Shown here: piece after piece, positions 53,001-56,000 of the stretch | Layout: each line of letters starts with the position of its first letter | Position numbering within the stretch: the first letter of the stretch is position 1 | NCBI RefSeq assembly: GCF_057098645.1 | Contig: NZ_CM169472.1 | Length of the DNA stretch: 64,000 bases | Strand: one strand, 5' to 3' | Program-made: the position numbers

Positions 53001-56000
53001 CTTTTTTGTCACCGTCGCCCACAACCAGATCGCTTTCTTCGGTTTCCGTGAAGGTGTCGCCAATCTCACCCGTCAGCCATGAAAGGATGTCCACATCGGA
53101 AAAATCCACGATTTCCTGTGTGGTGCGCGGGTACGCATAGACCGGATACAGCTTGATGCTCACCTCGTTAATCTGCGGGGTGCTGGTCTGTTCGCGTGCC
53201 TTACCCTCTTCACCGTGGTTAACGGTCGCACCGCCAGCGGAAACAAGCTGCTTAAACTCGTTGCTGCTGATTTTCTTCACGGTACAGATGCGGCGCATGG
53301 TGGATTCATCCGCCAGCATTCGCATGATTTCGGTGTTCAGTTCAGGGATAACGGTATAACCACCATCAGCGGGAACGCCTGTACTTAATGCGCGGGTTTC
53401 ACCTGTCAGAATGTAGTTGCGGAGTTCTGCGGGGTCAGTGGTCTGACTGCTTTTACCTGGCTTGCTGCGCTCTTCGTCTGCAATGGCTTCAAGGCGGGAA
53501 ATGTCTTTATCGAGGGATTCAGCTTTAGCGCGTAATTCGTCAAATTTTGCGCCCTCTGCATCGTTAAGGCTGCGGTTTTCTTTTTCCGCGTTCTCCAGCA
53601 TGTCGCGCATCTGATTTTTAATGGCGGTTTTCTGCTGGCGTAATTCGATTATTCTCGGCATAAAAAAAAGTCCTGGGGTTAAGTAAGGAACTCCAGGACG
53701 CGGCAAACACTCAACCGTTTTTCATAAGGAAATCAGTAATCGCACCGATCGTTTTCCCGCCTGGTAATGAATATTGGCGAGCACATTAACAGGCGGGAAA
53801 ATGGCCCCAGCGTCCTGGCACCACGGGCGAGAATAATCATGATTCAGTTCGGGTAAAATATGCCGATCCACTCAGTGAACAACGTGGAACAACCACGAAC
53901 AAATAATTTACAAAACATGACAAAAAGCCGGATTGCTCCGGCTGTGTGATTATCTGTCCTGGTAATTTCGCCATATTTCATCACCAGCACCATCCATACC
54001 CATTTCGGCATAAGTGCGATCGACCGCCTTTTTCAGGTCTCCGTAATTATCCGGCGGCTCCGGTGGCCTCTGTGCCTTCCTGGAACATTCCAGCCGTCGC
54101 ATCGTGATATGATGCCGTTCCTTGTCTGTCTCCACCAGCTGCATGACTTCACCCCATCGCGCCGCCGCCCTCCGGTAAAAGCCTTTCGCCTCCAGTTCCT
54201 CCGCTATGCGGTCATGTACCATCGTCACCCCCTCAGAACGAAATATCATCACCGTAAGGGTCATCGCCTCCCGCTGGTGGCTGATTACCCTGTGTGCCTG
54301 TGGTTTTGCGTCTGTTCCCGCCTGGACGTGCCGCGCGGGCACTGATTACGCTGTCTGCGATAACCTGCCAGCCCTGCCGCGTTTCTCCGTTCTGTCCGGT
54401 CCACTGGCTGACCTGCATCGTGCCGGATACGCTGGCAACATCGCCTTTTTGATGTTTAGCCAGGAAGTCGGCCTGTTTGCCAAATGCGATGACCGATAAC
54501 CATAACGTCGCCTGTCCGTCCTGTGCCTGGCTGCATGGCAAAGATACCGCCATACGCGCCAGCGTCATCGGTGTGCCCTTGCTGGTCTGTTTTACCTGCG
54601 GGTCGTCCACCAGCCGCCCGTAAGCGGCTATCTGTGCCGTCATAATTCCACCTCTCCGGTTTTAACGTTGATGGTTGTTACCTGTTCCGCTTCGGCAATC
54701 TCCCGTTCTGTCAGCGTGGCAAAGTTTGCCGCCGCCGTGGTCATGAATGCGCTTATCAGGTCGGGATGTTCCTTCGCGTATCCTTCCCGCGTGTGGCGGT
54801 CTATCGTTCTGATTGCCACCTTTAAGGTGTGCTCAGTCATGTCTAACGCTTTATATTTTGGCTCTGTTCTGTCTCTGCGTTTTTGGGTCATTTCTCGCAA
54901 CCTCTCACTTTTTCGCCTCACTTTTTCAAGCGTCTCACTTCGTCGCAGTTGGGATTTTCGGTTTTTCTATGTGTGTGTTTCATAAGTATTTTTTTACCCC
55001 TCACTTTTGAGGATGTATACAGGTCGAAAAGTGAGGGAGAGCGGGCTAATTTTGGCCCTCTTTCTATCCCCCTCGCTTTTGCTCCTCACTTTTATAGCGG
55101 CGCTACATCATCCCCATCGATACGAATAACCCCATCTTTTTCCAGCTTGTACAGCCAGCGCCGGAAGTTTTTCATTTCATACCCCAGCTTTTTCATGTCA
55201 TCACGTAACAGCGGGATCGTGCACTTGTCGCCGTTCTGTGTGCGTGAACGGATGCACCCCCATAGCGCGGTATGGTTTTCCGTCTTGTTCCCTGCCTCCT
55301 CGATGCGCTCCAGTTCAACAGGAGGGCGCGGATCATCCACCACCACCAGCGACGTGATTAATTCACCGTCAGCGTCGGTAAAAAGCTCCACCACGCGTAA
55401 GTCATATGCGGCTTCTTTGAGTTCCTCCGCGTCCTTCATTTTGGTGCATGAGATAACCAGCGCTTCGCTTCCTGCGTCCTCCCTGCGTATCCGGTATTCA
55501 GCATCCAGCGAAGCACGAAATGCACTGGAACCGCGCGCGCCTTTCGTCTCATCCTTGCCGGAATGGTGAACCACCAGCACCGTGGCCCCTGTGCGTCGTT
55601 TCAGTTCGTCACAACCACGGATAAACGCCCCCATATCACGGGAATCATTTTCATCATTCCCACCAAAGCAACGCGCCAGCGTATCCAGAATAATCATGCG
55701 TACAGGTTTACCCGTTTCCCGCTCCACCTGACGGGCAGCGATAACCATTTCATCAACATCAAGCGGGGCAGCCGGAAAGATGGGGCGGTTTACCAGATAC
55801 AGATTTTTCACCTGCTCATCGTGCACAACCTCCCAGGCTTTTACACGACGCGGAACACCTATACCGCCTTCACCAACCACATAGAGAACCGCACCATGTG
55901 CAACCCTGCGGCCTCCCCACTGGCGACCAGTGGCAACATGGCACGCCCACGATCCGGCAAGGAATGATTTATAGGACCCGCTAGCCCCGTATATGCTGCA

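Follow-up and report, generated by a model that had tools for sequence, protein, structure and literature searches.

A putative iteron-type replication origin immediately downstream of a RepA/SF4-type rep gene in a PICI with an EcCIEDL933-type packaging module

A cluster of short repeats lies directly 3' of a rep gene in a 64,000-nucleotide stretch of contig NZ_CM169472.1 (NCBI RefSeq assembly GCF_057098645.1), which was analysed in its whole length and will be called the window. The question raised by this locus is whether the non-coding gap that holds the repeats (54892-55091) is the replication origin of the E. coli phage-satellite island in which it is found. An iteron origin just after rep is what one expects in PICIs and SaPIs, and the window appears to contain another such origin. 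Because the layout of the motifs matches that of known satellite replication origins, it is very probable (we would put it at about 85%) that the gap serves as the vegetative replication origin of a PICI carrying an EcCIEDL933-type cf-PICI packaging module. A preliminary description had already proposed a satellite origin at this place, and the proposal is supported by the layout, by synteny with a tested origin and by co-variation of the repeats with Rep, all of them sequence comparisons.

The island is bounded by an integrase gene (63189-63983, running toward the window end), it has regulation and replication genes and its own HK97-type packaging genes and lacks tail and lysis genes, as is characteristic of PICIs and cf-PICIs (islands of approximately 10-18 kb). 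The packaging genes (47.3-53.7 kb) encode capsid, protease, portal, adaptors, HNH, TerS and TerL, and this module (47017-53948) is 97.6% identical to that of EcCIEDL933. The island is not EcCIEDL933 itself, since the Rep of the latter is of the DUF927 type. One island end adjoins phoQ, as in the EcCICFT073, EcCIEDL933 and PV15-279 islands, which all lie between roxA and phoQ; by analogy, the other flank, beyond the window, is presumably roxA. The gap is followed, on the minus strand, by an 83-aa ORF (phrog_1231; 54640-54891), which is present beside every rep allele and forms the downstream limit of the rep-ori module, and by the gene of a single-strand DNA-binding protein (SSB; 54233-54643, minus strand; Pfam SSB, E=1.7e-16), which is syntenic in all relatives and is likely to be a replication accessory. 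The start of the 83-aa ORF was set by the phrog_1231 match from residue 11 and by 252-bp RefSeq annotations in relatives.

The gap is 200 bp long, bordered by the rep stop codon on one side and by the ATG of the 83-aa ORF (54891-54889) on the other. Seven copies of a 9-10-base motif, five exact and two degenerate, span positions 54902-55094. These are the seven units listed in the preliminary description, and each of them could be read directly in the sequence. The limits given there for the array (54925-55090) have to be widened, two of the listed units being left of that start and the last unit overlapping the rep stop codon (55092-55094), and the estimate of about 165 bp of non-coding DNA was too low. 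Repeats were said to occur in both orientations, which is true for a single inverted copy; the other six all read AAAAGTGAGG in the rep direction.

Starting from rep, copy A (AAAAGTGAGG; 55084-55093, minus strand; plus strand CCTCACTTTT) overlaps the stop codon TAA, and its position is kept in relatives (+2 to +5 from the stop). Copy B (AAAAGCGAGG; 55071-55080, minus strand; plus strand CCTCGCTTTT) has one mismatch and keeps its position, +13 to +18, in relatives. Copy C (55027-55037, plus strand, reading AAAAGTGAGGG), the only inverted one, is the rep-proximal arm of an 11-nt perfect inverted pair, whose distal arm is copy D (AAAAGTGAGGG; 54998-55008, minus strand; plus strand CCCTCACTTTT; +85 to +90 in relatives). 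The 18-bp spacer between the arms (55009-55026) holds the palindrome TGTATACA at 55014-55021, and is proposed as a candidate nucleation or melting centre. After an AT-rich tract (54943-54997) follow the degenerate copy E (GAAGTGAGA, two mismatches; 54934-54942, minus strand; plus strand CTCACTTCG), which aligns with AAGTGAG or GGTGGG copies of relatives, copy F (AAAAGTGAGG; 54916-54925, minus strand; plus strand CCTCACTTTT) and copy G (AAAAGTGAGAG; 54902-54912, minus strand; plus strand CTCTCACTTTT), which is also the Shine-Dalgarno region of the 83-aa ORF. Thus, four copies (54998-55093) and three copies (54902-54942) lie on the two sides of the AT-rich tract, and, except for copy C, share the same direction. 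The preliminary description was right about AT-rich DNA beside the repeats: positions 54943-54999 are 65% AT as compared to 51% in the whole window, and in 40-nt windows of the tract the GC content falls to 30-33%. The tract is a candidate unwinding region; its AT content of 65% is moderate, which counts against the origin interpretation.

The clustering is exceptional for the exact motif. In the 64-kb window CTCACTTTT occurs five times on the two strands, every copy being inside 54904-55093, whereas 100 dinucleotide shuffles of the 64 kb gave a mean of 0.39 (sd 0.65, maximum 3), and none of the 100 reached five. When one mismatch was allowed, the remaining 12 matches were dispersed through the window. 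A looser statistic (8-mer, at most one mismatch, 210-nt windows) gave a score of 7 for the array and also for two unrelated sites of the window, and for this reason we relied on the exact matches. A search of the 64 kb for a second cluster of the iteron motif found none. An Rfam scan of 54700-55300 returned only SprD, whose 19.8 bits are below the gathering score of 100 and indicate a chance match. Two other features of the region were considered and rejected: a terminator-like hairpin (55043-55058) belongs to the antisense strand and lacks conservation in relatives, and a 228-aa plus-strand ORF spanning the array (54883-55569) was dropped as a gene because it is antisense to rep, has not been annotated in relatives and is disrupted there by indels.

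The putative initiator is encoded by rep (55092-56492, minus strand), which is full length in this copy. The 466-aa protein consists of a Toprim-like region (residues ~17-123), a RepA/SF4-type RecA-like core (148-315) and a C-terminal winged helix (405-466; coding region 55095-55280, minus strand). The core is defined by the Pfam AAA_25 match (E=2.4e-43), by a match to RSF1010 RepA (1G8Y) and by structural matches to RadA, Rad51 and KaiC; from a core of the RepA/DnaB/gp4 type we infer that Rep would move with 5'-3' polarity. The AlphaFold model of the C-terminus contains three helices (405-419, 426-435 and 443-452) and a beta hairpin (456-465) with pLDDT values of ~81-93 in 10-residue blocks, and Foldseek found a 66-aa match to a PcaR chain (probability 0.99), which is read here as the winged helix of PcaR. 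On the basis of the model this domain can be assigned with confidence as a winged helix; it is the predicted iteron reader, with N442 immediately preceding the recognition helix 443-452. The full-length model was mediocre (pLDDT 68) and its Foldseek matches were weak; only the RecA-like core and the winged helix could be interpreted from them. The gene had been called a primase/helicase, and the second half of this label holds. The first half is not supported for this Rep allele: a primase signature was looked for in Rep, and there is no zinc ribbon and no Pfam Toprim match, the position of the Toprim catalytic Glu is occupied by an invariant F-A-G, and a BLASTP comparison of the N-terminal domain with a primase-helicase relative of 699 aa gave nothing significant. 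What is left is a Toprim-like remnant without the Glu.

The layout is conserved. For 68-69 distinct relatives of Rep, drawn from many Enterobacterales, we examined the 240 nt 3' of the rep stop. In 68 of them this segment contains a median of seven copies of one 8-mer, as compared to three or four in control segments, and the copies stand at conserved offsets from the stop. An inverted pair is present at +42 to +61 in 53 of the 69 relatives, and 48 of the 53 loci with a perfect pair have TATA in the spacer. In Klebsiella, an island of this Rep family and layout had been assembled as a circular molecule of 17 kb, an indirect hint of autonomous replication. Among 5,426 complete E. coli genomes, 1,493 gave a match to the query segment, and in 614 of these the match covered 80% or more of the segment.

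The repeats change in concert: in the window and in relative L001 each copy, the inverted one too, has GTGAG, and in relatives L002, L003 and L004 each has GTGGG. Comparison of the Rep sequences suggests that the iteron core switches with the C-terminal winged helix and not with the rest of the protein. The Reps of the window and L003 are 93% alike in the N-terminal domain and 98% in the helicase, differ in the C-domain (82%) and have different iterons, whereas those of L002 and L003 share only 45% in the N-terminal domain, have 100% identical C-domains and the same iteron. At the DNA level, identity between the window and L003 drops to 54-82% in most of the 50-nt bins from -200 to +200 relative to the rep stop; on either side of this interval it is 90-100%. 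A block of ~450 bp comprising the winged-helix coding region and the array diverges as a unit between near-identical rep genes. Across the clades of relatives the winged-helix variant KN (~20 loci) goes with a (G/A)TGAGG core, KH (~8 loci) with GTGGGG or GTGGG, KK (~30 loci) with GTGGGGGA / (G/A)TGGGGGA and RKS (~5 loci) with GTGCGGC. This co-variation is partly confounded by shared ancestry, the number of independent switches being approximately two or three: N/H inside the E. coli clade, where the helicase is 98% identical, and N or H again in distant clades.

A similar relationship is seen between islands with other rep genes. Sister islands sharing the DUF4222 and 83-aa ORF/SSB flanks have a rep of the D5_N or the DUF927 type in the same slot, homology to these islands stops at window position 54893, and their gaps contain one set of repeats per rep allele (GGTAGAGG, TGCGGGTTA and GGTAGAKG). 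Different rep alleles thus have different repeats, which suggests that the iterons are specific to the cognate Rep.

These observations are consistent with the following scheme. After induction, the C-terminal winged helix of the 466-aa Rep would recognise the AAAAGTGAGG iterons, the A of GTGAGG being read by N442 where the recognition helix begins. Rep would assemble on the proximal set (A, B and the C/D pair around TGTATACA) and on the distal set (E, F and G), open the TATA centre and/or the neighbouring AT-rich tract, and self-load in the form of a hexameric helicase of the RepA/SF4 type. The single strands would be coated by the SSB of the island. Since no functional primase module is present in this Rep allele, the host (or the helper) would have to supply DnaG and Pol III for priming and synthesis.

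It must be noted that the activity of the origin in this particular genome is uncertain, because an IS21-family (ISSso4-like) element (56516-59154, minus strand; 7-bp target duplication) has inserted into the 3' end of the DUF4222 gene, at a point 17-23 bp ahead of the rep start codon. The insertion is outside the origin and likely affects rep expression; it may silence rep, leaving the origin intact yet unused here. This junction was found in none of the 5,426 complete genomes, and a second insertion sequence, of the IS110 family, is present further upstream. There is therefore some chance, although a small one, that the array is an origin by descent only, partly decayed and inactive in an island crippled by insertion sequences. 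It has seven recognisable iterons as compared to 10-11 in L001 and L003, copy B being mutated and a third proximal copy and the copy at +144 missing. However, several other genomes have the 801 bp around the array with 100% identity, and 369 have them with at least 99%, which suggests that this form of the array is maintained; rep is full length, and the array retains its inverted pair together with four other copies that are exact or nearly so.

A somewhat less probable explanation, which we consider unlikely, is that the repeats are operator or promoter elements for the 83-aa ORF, SSB, PerC and the packaging operon, bound by Rep or by another island regulator. The last two copies overlap the Shine-Dalgarno sequence of the 83-aa ORF, standing 10-35 bp before its ATG, and iteron-binding plasmid initiators commonly autoregulate. 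On the other hand, a scan of 54500-55500 found no sigma-70-like promoter, and the repeats vary with the Rep C-terminal domain, whereas the genes downstream of the gap remain 90-94% identical beside wholly different repeats. Moreover, in Fillol-Salom et al. (2018, PMC6092414) Gram-negative PICIs are described as unidirectionally transcribed from upstream, and the syntenic EcCICFT073 region contributes to replication. An operator role could coexist with the origin role. That the array is a packaging recognition site (cos/pac) bound by the small terminase is very improbable: terminase small subunits often bind repeated sites and the island has its own TerS and TerL, but the array is ~5 kb from terS, the identical rep-ori in O157:H7 PV15-279 is joined to lambda-like capsid/decoration genes and a different TerS, and EcCIEDL933, with its nearly identical packaging module, has different repeats.

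If the gap is an origin, the divergence of the ~450-bp block lends itself to a more specific interpretation, to which, taken as a whole, we give slightly less than an even chance. The last ~65 rep codons and the iteron gap would form an exchangeable specificity cassette, recombining apart from the helicase core, the N-terminal domain and the packaging module. A single residue where the recognition helix begins (N442; elsewhere H, K or S) would set the variable base(s) of GTG-N-GG, and the origin would have as its functional core the conserved inverted pair around the TATATA centre, on which two SF4 hexamers of opposite orientation would nucleate in a head-to-head geometry. Such cassettes would define orthogonal replicon groups, which could let several islands co-reside and could aid escape from origin-targeting helper-phage nucleases.

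With these results a probable origin can be annotated for Rep of the RepA/SF4 type, an allele that is widespread in E. coli and has relatives in many Enterobacterales. They indicate that a cf-PICI packaging module can be coupled to a RepA/SF4-type rep-ori where the prototype has a DUF927 module. The natural variants provide a testable residue-to-base specificity map (N/H/K/S vs. A/G/G/C), which could help in the design of orthogonal satellite replicons and in predicting whether co-resident islands are incompatible.

It is instructive to compare this rep-ori with known replication systems. T7 gp4, Twinkle and the long enterobacterial homologues have a Zn ribbon, a Toprim domain and an SF4 helicase; the window allele has the RecA-like SF4 core and, of the zinc ribbon and Toprim catalytic domain (conserved Glu and DxD) typical of DnaG and T7 gp4, only a Toprim-like remnant without the catalytic Glu. 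To our knowledge T7 gp4 has no C-terminal origin-binding winged helix. The alpha protein of P4 resembles the window Rep in combining a helicase with a C-terminal origin-binding domain that reads short repeats. It is an AEP-primase with an SF3 helicase, its repeats are of the TGTTCACC type, and P4 needs a second cis site, crr, whereas the window has a single cluster of the iteron motif. Iteron plasmids (pSC101, R6K, RK2, P1) have direct repeats as initiator sites by an AT-rich region adjoining rep; their initiators are not helicases and depend on DnaA boxes, IHF and host DnaB loading. In contrast, 54880-55110 in the window contains no DnaA box (TTWTNCACA) or IHF consensus with up to one mismatch and no GATC, and the initiator itself is a helicase.

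SaPI replication origins were reportedly dealt with by Ubeda et al. 2007. The PICI/SaPI plan, with iterons directly 3' of rep in two sets about an AT-rich tract (PMC9371898 and PMC6092414), is also what is seen in the window. SaPIs have 6-12 short iterons just downstream of rep with an AT-rich centre (PMC9371898), and SaPI Rep, a self-loading helicase, consists like the window Rep of an N-terminal domain, an ATPase and a C-terminal winged helix, which in SaPIs reads the iterons and makes the origin Rep-specific (Qiao et al. 2022, PMC9371898). They differ in that the ATPase of SaPI Rep is SF3/MCM-related with 3'-5' polarity and the SaPI iterons on the two sides of the AT tract point toward one another (PMC9371898), whereas the window has a RecA-like core (AAA_25; 1G8Y) and one inverted pair round a TATA centre beside the tract. 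Four E. coli Pri-Rep alleles have been published. Replication has been shown for EcCIEDL933, the Rep of which is DUF927-type, unlike the window allele. EcCICFT073 shares with the window the roxA-phoQ site and the order DUF4222, rep, repeat-bearing gap, ~85-aa ORF, SSB and PerC. Its gap, which occupies the position corresponding to that of the window gap, is 288 bp long with at least 12 GGTAGAYA repeats in both orientations as compared to AAAAGTGAGG in the window, and its Rep is a 584-aa D5_N/DUF5906/Pox_D5-type primase-helicase as compared to the 466-aa RepA/SF4-type helicase. According to Fillol-Salom et al. (2018, PMC6092414), in the EcCICFT073 pri-rep-ori, which was tested on a plasmid, two iteron sets flank an AT-rich region, and deletion of ori lowered the maintenance of the rep-ori plasmid.

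The organisation of the region after rep is that of the published origin plan of PICIs and SaPIs. The island adjoins phoQ, the last of three genes (purB, phoP and phoQ, 42.7-46.4 kb) that precede it, and all its genes are on the minus strand. Read from its far end, it starts with the integrase gene at the end of the window, followed by small ORFs and an IS110-family transposase gene, the DUF4222 gene, an IS21-family element and rep (55092-56492, minus), which encodes a 466-aa AAA_25 protein of the 'helicase RepA family'. A 200-bp gap directly after rep is followed by an 83-aa ORF, an SSB gene, a PerC gene and the packaging module (HK97-type capsid, protease, portal, adaptor, HNH, TerS and TerL). 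The roxA-phoQ interval is the site of EcCIEDL933 (the prototype capsid-forming PICI), of the PV15-279 island and of EcCICFT073; the present island borders phoQ likewise, roxA lying beyond the window, and no tRNA gene was found in the window. The gap is taken as 54892-55091, the downstream ATG being set by the phrog_1231 match and the RefSeq annotation of relatives.

The exact repeat CTCACTTTT occurs five times in the 64 kb, always within 54904-55093. The expectation from shuffled sequences was 0.39 ± 0.65 copies and none of 100 shuffles reached five, which rules out a chance origin; one-mismatch matches outside the array are scattered over the window. With CTCGCTTTT (55072-55080) and CTCACTTCG (54934-54942) the array has seven copies. 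All the repeat units listed in the preliminary description were found on direct reading, as was the AT-rich stretch beside them (54943-54999, 65% AT vs. 51% for the window), but the coordinates proposed for the array were too short: it extends from 54902 to 55094, starting on the rep stop codon. The description of copies in both orientations holds for one inverted copy (55027-55037); the other six, AAAAGTGAGG-like in the direction of rep, all point the same way. The inverted copy forms with 54998-55008 a perfect 11-nt inverted pair, whose 18-bp spacer contains TGTATACA. A hidden gene across the array was ruled out by comparison with relatives. Seven near-copies (at most one mismatch) of an 8-mer are also found in two other 210-nt windows, 5671-5880 and 37591-37800 (CTGGAGGA, TTGTTTTA).

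Of 5,426 complete E. coli genomes, 1,493 were matched in a megablast search with 54600-55400. In many cases the match comprises only the first 294 bases and stops at window position 54893, a little upstream of the start codon of the 83-aa ORF. In the islands with such partial matches, the conserved DUF4222 gene and the conserved 83-aa ORF flank a different replication gene, which encodes either a D5_N/DUF5906/Pox_D5 'primase' or a DUF927 protein whose match to a Cch-type HTH domain is weak (E=7e-4, below the Pfam gathering score); the rep of EcCIEDL933 is the DUF927 version. The gap after each alternative rep is 290-370 bp long and contains short repeats peculiar to it, which occur in both orientations (GGTAGAGG, TGCGGGTTA or GGTAGAKG). 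Since each rep type in the same slot has its own repeats, the repeats, judged from these alignments, travel with rep and not with either neighbour or the packaging module. EcCICFT073, which has the D5_N version, contains at least 12 GGTAGAYA repeats at the place syntenic to the window gap. According to the published account, its pri-rep-ori was cloned and deletion of ori reduced plasmid maintenance (PMC6092414). The window gap thus corresponds in position to an origin that has been tested, which supports the earlier reading of the array as a satellite origin.

Whichever of the four kinds of rep gene an island has, the 83-aa ORF (54640-54891; phrog_1231, function unknown) is kept directly after the putative origin and an SSB gene follows it; this ORF may be a replication accessory. 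The PerC-family transcriptional activator gene is at 53950-54342 (Pfam E=5e-43); in some strains, PerC homologues from PICIs are reported to activate the pathogenicity island LEE (PMC6092414).

Through the gap, four diverged relatives from E. coli could be aligned, with the repeat positions kept. In this alignment the repeat core changes jointly in all copies, the inverted copy among them: it is GTGAG in the window and L001, and GTGGG in L002-L004. When one genome per species was scanned for the pattern, 80 loci were obtained, among them loci of Xenorhabdus, Kosakonia, Serratia, Pectobacterium, Erwinia, Photorhabdus and Morganella. Within the 240 nt that follow the rep stop, the median copy number of one 8-mer (at most one mismatch) is 7 over 68 distinct loci; control segments, taken inside rep or 400 nt farther along, have 3-4. 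The offsets of the copies from the stop are kept (about +2 to +5, +13 to +18, +23 to +28, +85 to +90, then +145 to +195), as is that of the inverted copy (+55 to +60). At +42 to +61, 53 of 69 distinct loci have the local iteron as a perfect inverted pair, and in 48 of these 53 the spacer contains TATA. Distant Reps have unrelated repeats at the same place after rep. In a group of Serratia, Pectobacterium and Morganella loci (L034-L036, L040, L045, L054, L055 and similar) the first iteron falls within the last four rep codons, AAA GTG GGG GAT TAA (K-V-G-D-stop), thus in this clade the same bases encode the C-terminal peptide of Rep and the first putative Rep-binding site. One locus, L093, is Klebsiella pneumoniae pKp_Goe_795-4, a 16,971 bp circle deposited as a non-mobilizable plasmid. 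It encodes an integrase, a Rep akin to that of the window, a capsid and a head-tail adaptor; about 10 GTGCGGC iterons are arranged there as in the window. This 'plasmid' is a satellite-like island, and may be the excised, replicating form caught by assembly.

Rep has an alpha/beta domain at its N-terminus, then a RecA-like RepA/SF4 helicase core, and ends in a winged helix (residues 405-466), modelled confidently as three helices and a beta hairpin (pLDDT about 81-93). The label 'primase' was not borne out: AAA_25 was the sole Pfam match, and the N-terminal 130 aa matched no Pfam family. Relatives of about 700 aa combine Zn_Ribbon_Prim, Toprim_3 and AAA_25 with the same winged helix, thus the lineage is gp4-like.

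Helicase cores of the E. coli alleles show 98-100% identity, and their N-terminal domains fall into two types; iteron type tracks the C-terminal domain only. The window and L003 have a common N-terminal domain (93%) and differ in C-domain (82%) and iteron, while between L002 and L003 the N-terminal domain is different (45%) and the C-domain (100%) and iteron are the same. At the DNA level the window and L003 are 94-100% identical up to 250 nt before the rep stop, 54-82% in most 50-nt bins between -200 and +200 of the stop (one bin 94%), and again 90-100% in the next gene. The divergent block of about 450 bp, comprising winged helix and array, seems to behave as a specificity cassette. In all clades the residues just ahead of F-x-R-W, at the start of the recognition helix, sort with the iteron core: KN with (G/A)TGAGG (about 20 loci), KH with GTGGGG or GTGGG (about 8), KK with (G/A)TGGGGGA (about 30) and RKS with GTGCGGC (about 5), counts that are inflated by shared ancestry and represent only about two or three independent switches. 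Asparagine commonly contacts adenine, and histidine or lysine guanine, and the pairing would fit such contact preferences.

That this genome does not use the origin is a real possibility. An IS21-family element (istA/istB, ISSso4-like; 56516-59154, 7-bp target duplication) is inserted in the 3' end of the DUF4222 gene, whose stop overlaps the rep start in relatives; it lies 17-23 bp upstream of the rep ATG, and the array has fewer intact copies than those of the closest relatives. The rep/IS21 junction was found in none of the 5,426 complete E. coli genomes. The repeats may also serve, as a second function, as an operator or promoter, the last two copies overlapping the ribosome-binding site of the next gene; no promoter was detected in the array region, and variation in the repeats does not follow the downstream genes. 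The array cannot be a packaging site, as this rep-ori combines freely with different terminase modules.

The island is a mosaic. Its packaging module (47017-53948) is 97.6% identical to that of EcCIEDL933, and the segment from PerC through SSB, the 83-aa ORF and the gap to rep (53922-56515) is 99.4% identical to the island of the O157:H7 strain PV15-279, whose packaging region is different, of the classical PICI kind. A segment at 59902-61559, with the IS110-family transposase ORF (60130-61326, plus), stands in place of about 425 bp of regulatory-side small ORFs of the PV15-279 island.

As to mechanism, we infer that the winged helix of Rep would bind the iterons and Rep would assemble on both sets, open the DNA at the inverted pair's TATA centre and/or in the AT-rich tract, and load itself as a hexameric helicase, after which the island SSB would act. 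The inverted pair points to two complexes in opposite orientations. A search of the array region for DnaA boxes, IHF sites and GATC found none, thus the array is consistent with a Rep-only origin.

The cf-PICI papers map no origin, and in the literature text we found nothing on iterons of this Rep allele, a figure listing E. coli PICI iterons being outside the comparison. What the present work would add is comparative: the conserved inverted pair with its TATA centre, the 450-bp cassette and the apparent residue-base correspondence. In the SaPI Rep model a C-terminal winged helix reads 6-12 iterons located just after rep, with an AT-rich centre (PMC9371898). The mechanism proposed here is parallel to this model, but the helicase superfamily is different.
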